Below, one piece after another: positions 7,796-64,000 of a DNA stretch of 64,000 nt. Both the position numbers and the translations under genes were made by a program. The stretch is from Candidatus Methanomethylicia archaeon (GTDB taxonomy: Archaea > Thermoproteota > Methanomethylicia > Culexarchaeales > Culexarchaeaceae): NCBI GenBank assembly GCA_038727515.1, contig JAVYVS010000001.1:532297-596296 (forward strand), given 5' to 3'. Below the pieces are notes generated by a model, which saw only the letters and a program-made list of their open reading frames with translations, was not told the DNA's origin and ran no database searches. Within the stretch, counting starts at the first letter, position 1; each line of letters begins with the position of its first letter.

Positions 7796-9091
7796 TCATC
7801 GTTTAAATCTTCTAATAGATATTTTTGCAGTTAAAACTTTCTCACTTCTAAAGAATTTAGATGCTACATATAGTATGATTATTGAAAATACGGTCATGTA
7901 AATTATCCCTATAACTAGAAAGCCATAGTTTTCAAGCATTGCAGCTTTGGGAGAAGCTAATGTATAGGTATACGGAATGATATATAGGACTATCTGAAGA
8001 GGTAGAGGAAGCATACTTAAATCTGTGTATATAGAGACAAACATTGGAATGATCATAACAAAATATAGGTATCCAACGAGAGTTTGTGCACTTCTAACAT
8101 CTTCAGCGAATGTTGCTACGAGTAAGGCTAATACTAGAGATGAAACCATACTTAGAAATAGAGTTAAGACTATAAGTGCAAGTCCCAATGGAGTTATACT
8201 CAATCCAATATCGCTAAGAGATAAATTAATTGTAGGAATACTAAAGGAAGTAGTAATTGAATGGAAGTAATAGGTATATGCAATCATAAATGATGCTGAA
8301 CCCAAAATTGCAAGTATAACTGAGCATATAAGTTTAGCGAGCAATATAGTGAATCTACTAACGGGTAATGTAAGTAAAGTTTCAAGAGTCTTATATTCCT
8401 TTTCTAAAGCTATAGATGTAGATGCAAATTGCATGGCACTAATGAAAATTACCATTATAATTATGGGGATGAATATAGATTGAGACATAACAATGCTGGA
8501 TATTATTTGAGGTGGAACTTTAACAATATCACCTTTAACTATTGAATAATCAACCTTCTCAATAGGGTTTAAGAGTACATTTGGATCAACATTTGGGATT
8601 AAAGTCTTTATACGGTTATAGACTATTTCACTCTTCAAAAATTCAATTATACTTGAAGGTATACTAGAAGCACTACTTTCAGCTAAACTTAGAGTAGACA
8701 TTATAGTGTAGATTTCTATGGTTCCACGTATACCCATAGAAACATTATATCCAAACCCCTTTGGAATAACCATTATAATGGGGAAACCAAGCTCTAATGC
8801 TTTTTGAATAGCATTTTCAATACTTACATCATGTAAAAGCGTAATTCTACTACCAGGTTGAGAATTTAAGGAATCTATTATGACCTTAGACAATAGACTA
8901 TCATCATAATCTAAAATCAAAACTTTAGGATTCAAAGCATACTCTTTAACTGAAGACATTACAAAATTCATAATTCCACTCATTAAAACCATTACTAAGA
9001 ATGGAACGATAATCATCCCAATTAATATCTTTGGATCTCTAAGCATCTCTTTAACTTCCTTCTTCAATATATTAATCAAAACGTTATGCAT
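7796..9091 (-). CDS. ABC-2 type exporter permease (NatB-like)
   Basis: KEVKEMLRDPK, SIALEKEYKTLETLLTLPVSR and multiple TMs. Start moved to the ATG at 9091, which overlaps the end of the ATPase gene. Confidence 0.85.
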   Translation of the reverse strand: MHNVLINILKKEVKEMLRDPKILIGMIIVPFLVMVLMSGIMNFVMSSVKEYALNPKVLILDYDDSLLSKVIIDSLNSQPGSRITLLHDVSIENAIQKALELGFPIIMVIPKGFGYNVSMGIRGTIEIYTIMSTLSLAESSASSIPSSIIEFLKSEIVYNRIKTLIPNVDPNVLLNPIEKVDYSIVKGDIVKVPPQIISSIVMSQSIFIPIIIMVIFISAMQFASTSIALEKEYKTLETLLTLPVSRFTILLAKLICSVILAILGSASFMIAYTYYFHSITTSFSIPTINLSLSDIGLSITPLGLALIVLTLFLSMVSSLVLALLVATFAEDVRSAQTLVGYLYFVMIIPMFVSIYTDLSMLPLPLQIVLYIIPYTYTLASPKAAMLENYGFLVIGIIYMTVFSIIILYVASKFFRSEKVLTAKISIRRFKR

Positions 9092-60102: not shown

Positions 60103-61662
60103 ATGATGCAAAAAATAGAAAAGGGATTAAGTGTAGAGGAAATTCAAGCAATAGACGTAAATTGTGAATATCTAGGTATAAAAAGATTAATGTTAATGGA
60201 AAATGCGGGTGCAGAAGTTTCAAGGATAATTCTTGAAATGATAAAACCGAAAAAATGTATAACTATAGTGGCTGGAAGTGGAAATAAGGGTGGAGATGGA
60301 TTTGTTGCAGCAAGACATTTGTCTAGATTGGGGATAGAGATTATAGTTATACTTATTGGGAGACCAGAAAGCATAAGAAGTGAAGAAGCAAAAATAAACT
60401 GGAAGATAATAAATGAATTAAAATCATCAATAAAAACAATAGTAATTGAAGATACAAGTCAAATAGATTCAATAAAGGAGTTATTGACTAAATCAGAGGT
60501 TATAGTTGATGCACTACTTGGAACTGGTATAAGAGGTTTAGTAAAACCACCAGCATCAGAAATAATAAAGATTATTAATCACGCAAGAGAATGTGGAGCA
60601 AAGATAGTATCAATAGATGTACCATCAGGTATAGATCCAAATAACGGAACCCCATTGGGAGTAGCTGTAAAAGCTGATTTAACCATTACACATCACAAAC
60701 CAAAAATTGGGTTAATGACAAAGGATGGAACTGGATATGCTGGTGAAATAATAGTATCAAACATTGGAATCCCACCAGAAGTAGAATTATTCGCAGGACC
60801 TGGAGACGTCATAATAAACATTAAAAGGAGAAGGGAAACTTCACATAAAGGTGATTTCGGTAGAATAATCGTTATTGGTGGTAGCATAGAATACACAGGT
60901 GCGCCAGCTCTAACAGCTTTAGCCGCTTTAAGAACTGGAGCCGATATATCTATAATCATAACTCCAAGTAAAATTGCAAATGCCATAAGAAGTTTCTCAC
61001 CAAATTTAATAGTTAAAGAATATGAAGGAGAATACTTAAATACAAAGGGATTAAAGATTATTGAAAAAGAAATTGAAAAAGCAGATGTTGTAGCTATTGG
61101 ACCTGGATTATCTTCTACACAAGAAGTTTTAGACAATGCAATGGAAGTATTTAAGATGGCAGCTGAAAAAGGTAAAAACCTAGTTATAGATGCAGATGCA
61201 CTAAAAGCTTATGCTAAAAACCCATCAATAGTTAAAGGAACAAGAACAATAGTAACACCACACACAGGAGAATTCAAAATAGTAACGGGAATAACTCTGC
61301 CAAATGAAGAAGGAGAAGGATGGAAAGATAGGATACCAATAGTCATGAATGAAGCAAGAAAACTCGAAGTAACAATACTATTGAAATCACATTATGATAT
61401 AATTTCAGATGGCATAAAGGTTAAGGTTAATAGAACTGGAAATCCAGGTATGACTGTGGGTGGAACTGGAGATGTACTTACAGGGGTAACATCAACATTC
61501 CTAGCTTGGACTAATAATACATTTAGATCTGCAGTAGCAGCAGCATTTATAAATGGTTTAGCAGGAGATATAGCTGTTTCTGAAAAAGGGTATCATATAA
61601 CTGCAACTGATGTGGTGGAGAAAATTCCCGAAGCATTTAAAATCGTGGAGAAATACGTTTAA
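60103..61662 (+). CDS. nnr: Bifunctional NAD(P)HX epimerase/dehydratase
   Basis: LMENAG, GNKGGDG, DALLGTG, DVPSG; HKGDFG, GPGL, DADAL, TPHTGE, GGTGDVL. Confidence 0.93.
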   Translation: MMQKIEKGLSVEEIQAIDVNCEYLGIKRLMLMENAGAEVSRIILEMIKPKKCITIVAGSGNKGGDGFVAARHLSRLGIEIIVILIGRPESIRSEEAKINWKIINELKSSIKTIVIEDTSQIDSIKELLTKSEVIVDALLGTGIRGLVKPPASEIIKIINHARECGAKIVSIDVPSGIDPNNGTPLGVAVKADLTITHHKPKIGLMTKDGTGYAGEIIVSNIGIPPEVELFAGPGDVIINIKRRRETSHKGDFGRIIVIGGSIEYTGAPALTALAALRTGADISIIITPSKIANAIRSFSPNLIVKEYEGEYLNTKGLKIIEKEIEKADVVAIGPGLSSTQEVLDNAMEVFKMAAEKGKNLVIDADALKAYAKNPSIVKGTRTIVTPHTGEFKIVTGITLPNEEGEGWKDRIPIVMNEARKLEVTILLKSHYDIISDGIKVKVNRTGNPGMTVGGTGDVLTGVTSTFLAWTNNTFRSAVAAAFINGLAGDIAVSEKGYHITATDVVEKIPEAFKIVEKYV

Positions 61663-62305
61663 CAAAAAATTTCAATAGATGGGGTGAATCAAGTATCTTC
61701 CTTAAATAATAAGATTTACGTATAATTGGAATAGCTTTACCTTTAACAATACATTCTATAATGTCATCAATATTAGATTTAGCTTCATGGATAAAGGTAC
61801 ATGCAAATCCAATAGTCCAAGGTGTATGAGCATCAGAACCTGCAATCAATGGTATTTTCAATGGGAAAATATCTAAAGATGTTTTAAATGGATATATTTC
61901 TAAAGCATCAAAATAATTTTTAAGATTATATATTCTCTCACCAATACCAGAAGAACGAAATATATGTGCAGCAATAATAATACCACCAAGATCTTTAACG
62001 AAATCGTAAAATTGATGGAAATCTAATATGCACCTATCTGGAAAATCACATTTAAAACTTGGGAAAATTACAGTTACATGACCAAAATCAAAGGAAAATT
62101 CAGCTCCAGGTAAAACTATTAAATCATTAACTTTAGCATCTAAATAAACTTTAAACCGTTTATTAAGTAAACTTAATGAATCAACATTATAGATGTGATC
62201 AACAAAAGCTAATCCATCAACTCTCCCAACACTATATTTAACAATTTTACTTGGATTATAAAGTCCATCTGATAATGAAGAATGTACATGAACATCAATA
62301 TACAT
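61637..62305 (-). CDS. PHP-domain metallophosphoesterase
   Basis: DVHVHSSLSDG, DH, GAE, AH, GSDAH. The likely start is the ATG at 62305. Confidence 0.85.
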   Translation of the reverse strand: MYIDVHVHSSLSDGLYNPSKIVKYSVGRVDGLAFVDHIYNVDSLSLLNKRFKVYLDAKVNDLIVLPGAEFSFDFGHVTVIFPSFKCDFPDRCILDFHQFYDFVKDLGGIIIAAHIFRSSGIGERIYNLKNYFDALEIYPFKTSLDIFPLKIPLIAGSDAHTPWTIGFACTFIHEAKSNIDDIIECIVKGKAIPIIRKSYYLRKILDSPHLLKFFVKRISPRF

Positions 62306-62449
62306 AACTAAAATAAATAGTAACAAGTCAATATAAATAACTATTATGTAAAACTAGTAACTATCTACATGATAAATTCACTCTAGTGAAAACATATCCA
62401 CTAGAAACAACTTTATTAAAATAAAGATACATATAAGAATTGAATAAGA

Positions 62450-64000
62450 GTGTTAAGTAATAGAGGGTTAAATTATCCATTTACAGCAATAGTAGGTCAA
62501 GAGAAAGTGAAGAAGGCATTACTCACAATACTAGTGGACCCAACAATAAGTGGAGTACTAATAATAGGACCAAAAGGTTCTGGAAAAACTATTATCGCAC
62601 GCTCCATAGTAGACTTATTACCAGAAATAGAAATTGTTGAAGGATGTACTTTCCATTGCAACCCATATAAAGTGGAAGAAATGTGTAATCAATGTAAAGA
62701 GAAGATTACCAATGGAGAAAAGATTGAAATTGCAAAAATGAAAATGCCATTTGTAGAATTACCAATAAGTGCTACAGAAGATAGAGTAGTAGGATCAATA
62801 GATTGGGAAAAAGCTATAAGAGAAGGTGTGAAAGCTTTTCAACTAGGATTATTAGCGCAAGCAAATAGAGGAATACTATATATTGATCAAGTAAATATAC
62901 TCCCAGATTCTTTAATAGATGTAATACTTGATGCTTCAGCATCTGGATGGAATGTAGTGGAGAGAGAAGGAATAAAATTGGTGCATCCAGCTAGATTTAC
63001 ATTGATTGGTACAATAAACCCTGAAGAAGGAACTTTAAGACCACAAATACTGGATAGATTTGCATTATGTGTAAAAATGGAAGATATAACAGATGTAGAA
63101 CGTAGAAATACCATAGCCATTAGAAACATGTTATTTGAAGAGGATCCATTAAAATTCATTGAAGAATGGAAAGAAAAACAGATTGAAGTAAAAAAGAAAA
63201 TAGAAGAAGCAAGGAAAATTCTCCCAATGGTAAAAGTTCCGAGGGAAGTTGAAGAAAAAACAGTGGAATTATGTATAAAGATGAATGTAGATGGTCATAG
63301 GCCAGACATTATTATAACTAAAGTATCAAGAGTATTAGCAGCTTTAGATGGAAGATTAGAAGTATGTATTGATGACATACTTAGTGCAGCTGAATTAGCA
63401 TTACCACATAGAATTAAAGGTGAAGAATTTAAGCAGATAACTAGTGAAGAATTGAAGCAGACACTAGCATTAGCAACCACAGTTTCAAAAGCAGAAGATA
63501 AAGCTGAAGAAACTGAAGAAGAAATAAAACAAGTGAAAGTTGAAATTGGAGAAGGAATGGCTTTACCACAAATATCAAAACCTCCTGAAATTAAGAAGAA
63601 GACATGGAATATACCTATGCCAATAGCATTAGTGATAATGATGGTTATGTATTATTTTGTCTTCTATTTTGCATTTGCAGCAGTAACATTAATGTTTGCT
63701 GGAACTATGGGTAAGGGATGGGAAGAGGTTAGTGAATTAATGAGTGGAGAATTATATAAATGGGCTGCAATAGCACTTGGAGGATACATGCTTCTTCAAA
63801 CAATTCTTAATGCATTATCGAGGAGGAGAAAGATAGCTTATGTTAAAGCCGTTAGAGTACAGGAGGAGGAGGCAAAGAGGATAATTACACATAGAATTTT
63901 AGTAAAAGAACAGATAGTGGAGGCTCCTCCACCAATACAGAAATTTGGTGCAAGAGCATTTCAATACATATCATTATTAGGTACAAAGATTCTTTCAAGT
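62450..64000 (+). CDS. ChlI/ChlD-like (Mg/Co-chelatase clade) AAA+ protein fused to two TM helices; partial, runs off the window
   Basis: Hand translation from GTG 62450, open for 517 codons: YPFTAIVGQE, GPKGSGKT, CTFHCNP..CNQC, VELPISATEDRVVGSID, GILYIDQVN, VVEREG, GTINPEEGTLRPQILDRF, DGHR, LALPHR; then an acidic linker and two hydrophobic helices. Not in the ORF track. Confidence 0.88.
   Translation, partial: MLSNRGLNYPFTAIVGQEKVKKALLTILVDPTISGVLIIGPKGSGKTIIARSIVDLLPEIEIVEGCTFHCNPYKVEEMCNQCKEKITNGEKIEIAKMKMPFVELPISATEDRVVGSIDWEKAIREGVKAFQLGLLAQANRGILYIDQVNILPDSLIDVILDASASGWNVVEREGIKLVHPARFTLIGTINPEEGTLRPQILDRFALCVKMEDITDVERRNTIAIRNMLFEEDPLKFIEEWKEKQIEVKKKIEEARKILPMVKVPREVEEKTVELCIKMNVDGHRPDIIITKVSRVLAALDGRLEVCIDDILSAAELALPHRIKGEEFKQITSEELKQTLALATTVSKAEDKAEETEEEIKQVKVEIGEGMALPQISKPPEIKKKTWNIPMPIALVIMMVMYYFVFYFAFAAVTLMFAGTMGKGWEEVSELMSGELYKWAAIALGGYMLLQTILNALSRRRKIAYVKAVRVQEEEAKRIITHRILVKEQIVEAPPPIQKFGARAFQYISLLGTKILSS

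Follow-up and report, generated by a model that had tools for sequence, protein, structure and literature searches.

What would a chelatase-type motor protein do if it were fixed in the membrane of an archaeon in which neither a large chelatase subunit nor core tetrapyrrole synthesis is detected? The question is raised by the last gene of a 64,000-nucleotide stretch of DNA (the window; G000:C1:532297-596296, where G000 is the organism's own genome, a metagenome-assembled genome (MAG) of 93.6% completeness). An open reading frame (ORF) starting with GTG at position 62450 stays open to the end of the window (517 amino acids, aa) and in the genome runs on to 855 aa, ending at window-equivalent position 65017. 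An earlier note, made from the sequence alone, had read it as a ChlD-like scaffold tethered to the membrane, with a natural Glu-to-Gln change in Walker B, partnering an active ChlI in a non-photosynthetic archaeon; named genome loci indeed place the lineage in Candidatus Methanomethylicia. We infer, with reasonable though not high confidence, that the protein is part of a CobN-independent, membrane-tethered ChlI/ChlD-type motor acting on a membrane-associated client.

Domain architecture of the ChlD-like protein

The features of the gene are given below, with conservation taken from the 162 sequences used for the trees (73 forms with transmembrane (TM) segments, 65 soluble fusions and 24 stand-alone ChlI). 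Structure prediction confidence is given as the predicted local distance difference test (pLDDT) score, and MIDAS stands for metal-ion-dependent adhesion site.

62450..64000, + strand: front 517 codons of the 855-aa gene, GTG start (ORF scan and genome extension)
62450..63481, + strand: ChlI-type AAA+ module with lid, aa 1-344 (Pfam, TIGR02030, AlphaFold2, Foldseek)
62567..62590, + strand: Walker A motif GPKGSGKT, aa 40-47 (Lys invariant in 162/162 family members)
62645..62695, + strand: four-Cys insert C66, C70, C79, C82, aa 66-82 (alignment conservation)
62876..62896, + strand: Walker B motif LYIDQVN, aa 143-149 (D146-Q147 encoded by GAT CAA at 62885-62890)
63050..63061, + strand: Arg-finger motif LDRF, aa 201-204 (R203; invariant in 162/162)
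63290..63301, + strand: sensor-2 motif DGHR, aa 281-284 (R284; invariant in 162/162)
63488..63556, + strand: acidic linker, aa 347-369, counterpart of the ChlD acidic linker (sequence; AlphaFold2 pLDDT <50 for aa 345-388)
63593..63832, + strand: predicted TM hairpin with basic flanks, KKKTW to SRRRK (hydropathy, AlphaFold2)
63833..64000, + strand: start of a ~130-aa juxtamembrane segment (aa 462-589) toward the AAPxQ and VWA parts (AlphaFold2 confidence low for aa 460-624)
beyond the window, + strand: AAPxQ motif PTIRSAAPKQ, aa 590-599 (sequence)
beyond the window, + strand: MIDAS motif DISES of the VWA domain, aa 635-639 (VWA_2, E 2.8e-12)

The ChlI-like module and the Walker B motif with its CAA codon lie where the earlier note had read them, and the VWA/MIDAS domain that it had predicted past position 64000 is present, completing the ChlD-like order of AAA+ module, acidic linker, AAPxQ and VWA/MIDAS. 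Pfam matches cover Mg_chelatase (aa 11-192), AAA_lid_2 (aa 270-333) and, past the window, VWA_2; the MIDAS residues D635, S637 and S639 are invariant across the homologue alignment of the TM protein. When the first 517 residues were scored against NCBIfam, the top match was TIGR02442, 'putative cobaltochelatase' (448.7 bits, cut-off 779.45), and the matches to TIGR02030 (BchI-ChlI, 384.8 bits, cut-off 466.95) and TIGR02031 (BchD-ChlD, 241.1 bits, cut-off 499.55) were also under their cut-offs. A sequence search of solved structures returned only ChlI/BchI (ChlI 8osf_A, E 1.2e-95) and the BchD VWA domain, the latter (2x31_A, E 4.8e-10) being the sole match not of ChlI type. Foldseek likewise gave ChlI as the best match of the AAA+ module (8osg_B, target-normalised TM-score 0.93, root-mean-square deviation 2.3, 42% identity), with BchI also matched.

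The four-Cys motif CxxxC...CxxC is probably a metal-binding (zinc) knuckle; Cys is found in at least 161 of the 162 sequences at C66, C70 and C79 and in 159 at C82, and the insert is common to the TM, soluble-fusion and stand-alone ChlI groups. Three parts of the 855-aa gene are represented in metatranscriptome contigs, at most a hint of its expression. A promoter and terminator scan was at chance (12 found vs 13.4 expected), and its consensus is bacterial and uninformative for an archaeon.

Predicted topology of the hairpin

From KKKTW (aa 382-386) the hairpin passes through TM1 (aa 388-418, 63611-63703), a 19-aa loop (aa 419-437) and TM2 (aa 438-456, 63761-63817) to SRRRK (aa 457-461). The TM segments were called from Kyte-Doolittle hydropathy, with a 19-aa peak of 2.31 for TM1, and from helices predicted by AlphaFold2. 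The AlphaFold2 model, built on a 19-sequence alignment (mean pLDDT 68.6), is confident for the AAA+ (aa 1-344) and VWA (about aa 625-825) domains, places long helices at 390-420 and 424-460 (block pLDDT roughly 62-85), and falls below 50 in segments 345-388 and 460-624. Among the 73 TM-bearing homologues, both hydrophobic peaks reach 1.6 or more at the homologous position in 65, and exactly two peaks are found in all 73, the third-best being at most 1.38. The loop measures 10-32 aa (median 21), and the density of Lys plus Arg per residue is 0.27 in the N flank and 0.28 in the C flank vs 0.075 in the loop, the flanks being more basic than the loop in 73 of 73.

According to the positive-inside rule, basic flanks face the cytoplasm. 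Since the flanks are basic and the loop is not, the hairpin, presumed to be inserted in the membrane, would be of the N-in/C-in type, with the AAA+ and VWA domains both cytoplasmic, a topology that the earlier note had also proposed and that the two hydrophobic segments and basic flanks of all 73 homologues bear out. When the TM and juxtamembrane part (aa 380-585) was used by itself to search 1.84 billion representatives, only its own cluster and one repetitive 2014-aa protein were returned, so the anchor is untraceable by sequence. What is conserved in it is position and hydrophobicity rather than sequence, which is what a simple tether would be expected to show.

A conserved family of predicted membrane-anchored forms

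To place the protein among its relatives, 5.8 billion clustered proteins were searched, which gave 1208 matches among 8000 scored candidates, and the best 120 were examined. Among these best 120 of 1208, 73 homologue clusters carry the TM segments, and they come from Methanomethylicia (Culexarchaeales-like) and Bathyarchaeia. Entries P0002-P0075 (743-867 aa) have the hairpin, while P0076-P0121 (725-840 aa) lack it. Orthologues in Candidatus Culexmicrobium are 55-57% identical to the window's protein, and the remoter TM forms of Bathyarchaeia 36-40%. The source names are automatic ('VWA domain-containing protein', 'Mg-chelatase subunit ChlI/ChlD'; Bathyarchaeota, Methanomethylicota, Thermoproteota). 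The architecture is that of a large conserved family which so far carries automatic names only.

The earlier note knew of no described system with this architecture. That much holds in the literature searched (most subscription journals lay outside its scope), where no membrane-anchored or TM-containing ChlD is described and the term 'AAPxQ' matched no paper, but the architecture is not rare. The terms chelatase, ChlI and von Willebrand are absent from the main text of the description of Culexarchaeia (PMC9723716), whose supplementary tables may list such genes. What appears to be new, on the sequence evidence, is a ChlI/ChlD-type AAA+/VWA motor with its D subunit as a predicted integral membrane protein. 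PF26791, precomputed on all 120 listed homologues, was considered as a family for the TM region and rejected, as it is the 'AAPxQ' pre-VWA domain of Pfam 38.1.

Two entries are not among the 162 rows of the trees: P0002, which matches the query at 99% identity, and P0008, which is truncated. FastTree, applied to the C-terminal 330 residues, gave a branch (support 97) that has the TM forms on one side. IQ-TREE was run (LG+G4, short search) on a 44-row subset comprising 26/73 TM forms and 18/65 soluble ones; its input joined the AAA+ part to the C-terminal part and omitted the TM region. This tree, too, places the TM forms in one group (SH-aLRT 99), and it separates the two archaeal classes. The sister of the TM forms in it is the TM-less ~800-aa Bathyarchaeia forms, and both stand apart from the short CobN-linked fusions. 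The FastTree of the AAA+ module alone differs from the C-terminal and concatenated trees: it requires two changes of the TM label and puts the Culexarchaeal TM clade nearer to ChlI and the short fusions. This discrepancy may reflect the similarity of the ChlI and ChlD AAA+ modules, and a single TM origin is still compatible with it. In the TM-less Bathyarchaeia forms P0076-P0121, all 46 of which have DE in Walker B, a basic-rich middle with a short hydrophobic amphipathic stretch is found at the hairpin position; this stretch may be a peripheral membrane-binding helix.

The Walker B substitution and its codon

In the alignment columns of Walker B, the 73 TM forms read DE in 51, DQ in 10, DN in 6, DD in 3 and ED in 3, as compared to DE in all 65 soluble fusions and all 24 stand-alone ChlI. 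The sensor-1 Asn is kept in 66/73, 65/65 and 24/24, respectively, whereas the Walker A Lys, the Arg finger and the sensor-2 Arg are invariant in 162/162, across all three groups. The Walker B Glu has been replaced in 22 of the 73 TM forms, through at least seven changes on either tree. The DQ version occurs in three separate lineages, namely the window's clade, P0016 with P0019, and P0063 with P0056; in the 121-protein Walker B alignment there are 12 DQ sequences, 7 of them independent clusters of close relatives (P0002-P0008, 73-99% identical). The sister clade of the window's clade (56% identity) reads DE. Of the two features that the earlier note had proposed to check in orthologues, the hairpin is present in 73 clusters, whereas DQ does not mark the architecture.

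The AAA+ module of the DQ clade is as conserved (76% identity) as that of the DE sister clade (74%), and is thus not decaying. Since the residues for binding and subunit contact are invariant while Walker B and sensor 1 vary, selection keeps nucleotide binding and contacts between subunits and has repeatedly tolerated the loss of hydrolytic residues, and the Q147 protein has presumably lost ATP hydrolysis. According to the part of PMC3789969 used here, ATP hydrolysis has never been observed for ChlD, the Walker A variant K49A is dead, and the engineered E152Q variant assembles normally and keeps a reduced activity. The natural Glu-to-Gln change is therefore real and informative but not very surprising, because mutagenesis of cyanobacterial ChlD shows the same tolerance. 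The family offers a natural experiment: in its D-type ring the catalytic Glu has been replaced at least seven times, yet the residues for binding and the Arg finger have not varied. This supports the allosteric, non-hydrolytic role that mutagenesis had led others to propose for ChlD.

Three independent DNA studies of hot springs provide single contigs of 5.7-48.5 kb that span 62450-64000 at >99% identity. There are 8 differences among these contigs, of which 7 are itemised at distinct positions, 4 of them synonymous; none is at 62885-62890, and a metatranscriptome contig over 62702-62906 keeps CAA too. The GAT CAA Walker B codon is not a sequencing error. At codon 132 (62843-62845) the window has CTA (Leu), where the three DNA assemblies and one RNA contig have CCA (Pro); the Leu reflects either strain variation or a wrong base in this assembly.

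A stand-alone ChlI as the probable partner

Own-genome searches revealed one other ChlI-type gene, on contig C2 (G000:C2:38219-39226, - strand), which encodes a 357-aa protein with the motifs GAKGTGKS and LYVDEINLL. Its score on TIGR02030 is 460.4 bits, just under the cut-off of 466.95, and it shares 52% identity with the TM protein's AAA+ module. Across 16 such ChlI partners the mean column identity is 67%, and K44, D144-E145, R201 and R282 are invariant (16/16). The intact, active-type ChlI that had been expected next to the TM protein gene thus exists, but it lies on another contig, and the two genes are adjacent only in Bathyarchaeia.

Co-occurrence was assessed in 41 genomes of the class, 12 of them in the order. 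Of these 12, 11 have the ~850-aa form, either complete or as fragments at contig ends (it is missing in G002, 45% complete), and 10 have the ~360-aa ChlI (missing in G001, 74% complete, and G010, 57%). The class's other 29 genomes show neither, and 8 of them have 625-721-aa fusions instead. In Bathyarchaeia, 14 of 17 TM loci have, immediately upstream and in the same orientation, an intact ChlI (347-393 aa) whose Walker B reads DE; at the remaining three, one ChlI is cut by the contig end, one is a remnant only and one is lacking. On G041, a Bathyarchaeia chromosome in a single contig, there are three stand-alone ChlI as well as long ChlD-type genes, also three in number, of 847, 829 and 899 aa. 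The pairing of ChlI with the TM protein is supported by this linkage in an independent lineage, and a physical I-D complex would be predicted from it.

An alternative, which we regard as unlikely, is that the TM protein works alone as a homo-oligomeric membrane AAA+/VWA machine or regulator, with ChlI serving another process. The two genes are unlinked in the own genome and across the order, 51 of the 73 TM forms have the full catalytic set and could be self-sufficient ATPases, and one Bathyarchaeia locus has no upstream ChlI and another only a remnant. In the window's protein, however, the Walker B Glu is Gln, so that a motor built on it would need another ATPase, and the adjacency at 14 of 17 loci, the co-occurrence within the order (11/12 and 10/12 vs 0/29 elsewhere in the class) and the three ChlI beside three long ChlD-type genes on one chromosome all favour the two-component ChlI/ChlD-type motor.

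Two observations on the ChlI loci may be added. In G041 (C1:301633-303722, 1248060-1250227, 1479600-1480992 and 1659621-1660550; no CobN or HemB matches), the upstream ChlI of one pair is a decayed remnant, and one ChlI lies elsewhere by itself. In the order, ~40 bases are shared by the 3' ends of the partner ChlI gene and of an ABC-type ATPase gene convergent with it (L042:7232-7972, + strand, and 7932-9005, - strand), an arrangement kept in 6 of the 6 order loci examined (around 38.2 kb of G000:C2 in the own genome).

Tetrapyrrole chelatase or another client

Searches for the large subunit CobN/ChlH (PF02514) gave no match in the own genome, in the 5 relatives of family f1, in the one of family f2, or in the 5 Bathyarchaeia genomes that carry the ChlI/TM operon. 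PF02514 was found in 4 of 5 relatives of family f3 and in 5 of 14 control genomes. In relatives that have it (e.g. G009, G022, G026, G030, G007, G008, G023), CobN adjoins a separate soluble ChlI-D fusion of 625-720 aa. HemB, HemC and HemD had no matches in the own genome, and HemB none in the 12 genomes of the order or the 5 Bathyarchaeia genomes, while the control genomes were positive for the three in 11, 11 and 12 of 14. The earlier note had suggested searching the genome for CobN/ChlH, and none was found. A role as porphyrin or corrin chelatase is unlikely, because the absences are consistent across 17 genomes, one of them a single-contig chromosome. The absence of HemB alone does not exclude work on imported tetrapyrroles, because the f3 relatives have CobN without a HemB match.

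In f3 itself (G007, G008, G009 and G010), CobN lies beside the soluble ChlI-D fusion, e.g. at G009:C2:277118-282690, which has the look of a cobaltochelatase without de novo tetrapyrrole synthesis and suggests either that corrinoid precursors are salvaged or that CobN is used in another way.

The TM protein could instead be the medium subunit (the ChlD/CobT role) of a true class I chelatase for tetrapyrroles. It would then be localised to the membrane and, with a large subunit that has diverged too far to be detected, insert Co, Ni or Mg into a macrocycle that is imported or goes unrecognised. The best NCBIfam matches, TIGR02442 and BchD-ChlD TIGR02031, the intact AAPxQ and MIDAS of medium subunits, and the f3 genomes with CobN and without a HemB match, so that tetrapyrroles may be salvaged in the order, all speak for it, and published annotation takes the bathyarchaeotal chlI and chlD as chelatase genes (in the cited part of PMC7110647). 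Both family scores are, however, far under their cut-offs; CobN/ChlH is not found in the own genome, the 6 f1 and f2 relatives or the 5 Bathyarchaeia genomes; HemB, HemC and HemD are not found in the genomes searched; where CobN is present it has its own soluble fusion beside it; and the TM forms are a clade apart from those CobN-linked fusions. We judge such a chelatase improbable, and a motor that works independently of CobN remains the preferred reading.

Proposed mechanism

In the mechanism that we propose, the 855-aa protein would be the ChlD-type, medium-subunit-like member of a chelatase-type motor. Because the catalytic Walker B Glu is lost and the binding and contact residues (Walker A Lys, Arg finger, sensor-2 Arg) are kept, its AAA+ part would most likely form a nucleotide-binding, non-hydrolysing docking ring, by analogy with cyanobacterial ChlD. 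The two-helix hairpin in the ChlD linker would anchor the protein, with the AAA+ and VWA/MIDAS domains at the cytoplasmic side. Hexamers of the C2 ChlI would hydrolyse ATP for the pair, and the D-type ring would dock on them to give a two-tier motor, as in ChlID and CobST (preprint 10.64898/2026.10.09.757910), at the inner membrane face. The MIDAS face could then capture a membrane-associated client and remodel it, e.g. for insertion of a metal or cofactor, as in ChlID-ChlH and NorQD. The motor is probably not a porphyrin or corrin chelatase, because CobN/ChlH and core tetrapyrrole synthesis are not detected in the carriers searched; the most economical guess for the client is a membrane complex that needs remodelling or metal insertion. 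That the protein remodels or metallates membrane complexes, as the earlier note had put it, we likewise infer.

A more specific version is put forward tentatively and has in our view a little less than an even chance: docked at the membrane and independent of tetrapyrroles, ChlI and the TM-bearing ChlD would together serve one or more membrane complexes of anaerobic TACK archaea as an AAA+/VWA metallochaperone or remodeller. If it is true, the chelatase motor would be a general client-remodelling engine, coupled to CobN/ChlH in some lineages only, and the bathyarchaeotal 'Mg-chelatase' genes (up to three pairs per genome) would be uninformative on chlorophyll or cobalamin synthesis. Overall the earlier reading is partly supported: its account of architecture, topology, MIDAS and active partner is largely right, but it makes both the architecture and the Glu-to-Gln change out to be more singular than they are.

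Several observations weigh against the proposed motor. The ChlI and TM protein genes are unlinked in the own genome and across the order, and the pairing rests on co-occurrence and on the operons of another class, Bathyarchaeia. The absences of CobN/ChlH and of tetrapyrrole synthesis come from MAGs (the own is 93.6% complete, and of the five Bathyarchaeia genomes one has a stated completeness), and f3 carries CobN though HemB is not found there. As DE is retained, and ATP may be hydrolysed, in 51 of the 73 TM forms, a 'dead scaffold' would be lineage-specific. TM2 of the window's protein peaks at just 1.39, under the usual 1.6, and because the AlphaFold2 linkers are of low confidence the arrangement of the domains is unreadable from the model. 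Pro is near-invariant at the position of codon 132 in the family ('xPGLL'), which makes the Leu of the window odd. The neighbours of the gene are housekeeping or metal-homeostasis genes, with synteny kept within the order only; no neighbour gene is common to both classes, and gene context revealed no client.

A third explanation would be a conflict, defence or signalling system of the vWA-AAA+ kind, in which a membrane-tethered sensor triggers an effector. Modules of vWA and MoxR are reported to be widespread in conflict systems, and the chelatase sub-clade to belong to the same AAA+ clade (PMC7159879, in the part cited); in addition, paralogues have expanded to three pairs in one Bathyarchaeia genome, and a small gene family (fam1, described below) accompanies the operon at 8 loci. 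Against these stand the PADLOC results, in which the TM protein and ChlI gave weak generic AAA+ matches only (E 4e-4 and 3e-6), the lack of an effector-like domain in the protein or its conserved neighbours, the stable synteny of the locus among housekeeping genes across the order, and its vertical conservation, with a tree that splits the two archaeal classes. We hold this explanation to be very unlikely. Finally, an artefact (a CAA miscall, or a chimeric assembly joining ChlI, membrane and VWA genes) has a negligible probability, for although the Leu at codon 132 shows that single-base peculiarities occur in this assembly, the artefact is effectively refuted by the independent DNA assemblies, where single contigs carry the unchanged codon, and by the orthologues, with full-length proteins of 844-858 aa in at least six other genomes and 73 TM-bearing clusters in all.

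Relation to known systems

ChlD and BchD share with the window's protein a ChlI-like AAA+ module that binds ATP without needing to hydrolyse it (PMC3789969, in the part cited), an acidic linker, a separate ChlI ATPase, and an AAPxQ motif ahead of a MIDAS-bearing VWA/integrin-I domain at the C terminus (PMC6604950, likewise in part). In contrast, ChlD is soluble with an acidic Pro-rich linker, whereas the window's protein has the TM hairpin and the ~130-aa juxtamembrane segment in its linker; no ChlH/CobN, HemB, HemC or HemD is found in its genome, and its TIGR02031 score is 241.1 vs 499.55. Also related are the archaeal ChlI-ChlD fusions of the TIGR02442 type ('putative cobaltochelatase', 600-720 aa, beside CobN), which occur in relatives of the same class and have the same domain order, the four-Cys insert and the best NCBIfam match. 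They differ in being soluble, in their acidic Pro-/His-rich linkers, in their Walker B (DE in 65/65 soluble forms), in adjoining CobN and in forming a separate clade, the window's protein scoring below the cut-off of their family (448.7 < 779.45).

The likeness to NorQ-NorD and RavA-ViaA, in which an ATPase ring and a VWA/MIDAS adaptor remodel a target, is functional only. RavA-ViaA is said to act at the inner membrane (PMC9489729). The pairs of MoxR and VWA proteins differ in that the AAA+ of the window's protein is of ChlI type (no AAA_3/MoxR Pfam match, AAA_5 marginal) and in that its VWA adaptor carries its own AAA+ ring and is a predicted integral membrane protein. CobS-CobT resembles the proposed motor in combining an AAA+ hexamer with a VWA adaptor, a finger of the VWA being placed in the ATPase pore and the MIDAS left free for the client (bioRxiv 10.64898/2026.10.09.757910); CobT, according to the domain scheme of that preprint, is without the ChlI-type AAA+ module and the TM segment, and its client CobN is not found in the window's genome. 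In the parts of the literature cited, the VWA/MIDAS of ChlD engages the client ChlH (PMC6604950), NorQD remodels its target, inserting metal into membrane-bound NOR (PMC13036017), and client capture by VWA/MIDAS is presented as a general scheme (PMC7159879).

Genes for chlI and chlD without a large subunit have been noted before, and their function was said to have 'remained unexplored' (Antonov 2022, PMC9227772, in the part cited). In the cited portion of Pan et al. 2020 (PMC7110647), the bathyarchaeotal chlI and chlD are treated as possible chlorophyll genes, and most of the MAGs carrying them are reported to lack cobalamin genes. The present analysis defines a sub-family, to which many of these orphan genes belong, in which a predicted integral-membrane ChlD occurs with a canonical ChlI in genomes without detectable CobN/ChlH or 5-aminolevulinate (ALA) dehydratase, an absence that argues against the pigment (chlorophyll) reading and bears on how 'chelatase' genes in Bathyarchaeia are read. 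The question of the orphan ChlI/ChlD thereby becomes testable, as a membrane-tethered motor whose client could be fished with the VWA/MIDAS domain.

Gene neighbourhood

In the own order, the gene is flanked by a divergent PHP phosphoesterase gene, an NAD(P)HX repair fusion, and convergent FeoAB with a DtxR-type repressor; in f2 and f3 a PmbA/TldD pair and Sua5 are found in addition. In the window, the upstream genes are the PHP-family phosphoesterase (61637-62326, - strand) and the NAD(P)H-hydrate repair gene (YjeF_N and Carb_kinase; 60103-61662, + strand), which are syntenic across the order with no functional link apparent. The adjacency of FeoAB was considered as a functional link and rejected; it is not kept across both classes and was therefore taken as synteny by descent. 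The neighbours in Bathyarchaeia include PolD DP2, PcrB, MFS, ADH, amidohydrolase and POR genes. A 1146-aa neighbour in L070 and L083 was considered as a hidden CobN and rejected, since it is DNA polymerase II DP2.

At 8 Bathyarchaeia loci, a gene of the family fam1 lies directly upstream of ChlI. Neither Pfam nor the atlas nor PADLOC gave a match to fam1, and the own genome was found to have no homologue of it. It encodes soluble proteins of 231-263 aa with an invariant C-terminal RRxFGGLTF, found at L091:7096-7887, L105:7229-7930, L104:1374-2069, L095:1873-2643, L094:5791-6492 and L097:4978-5745, and as fragments in L063 and L067, and it may be an accessory factor or a client of the motor.

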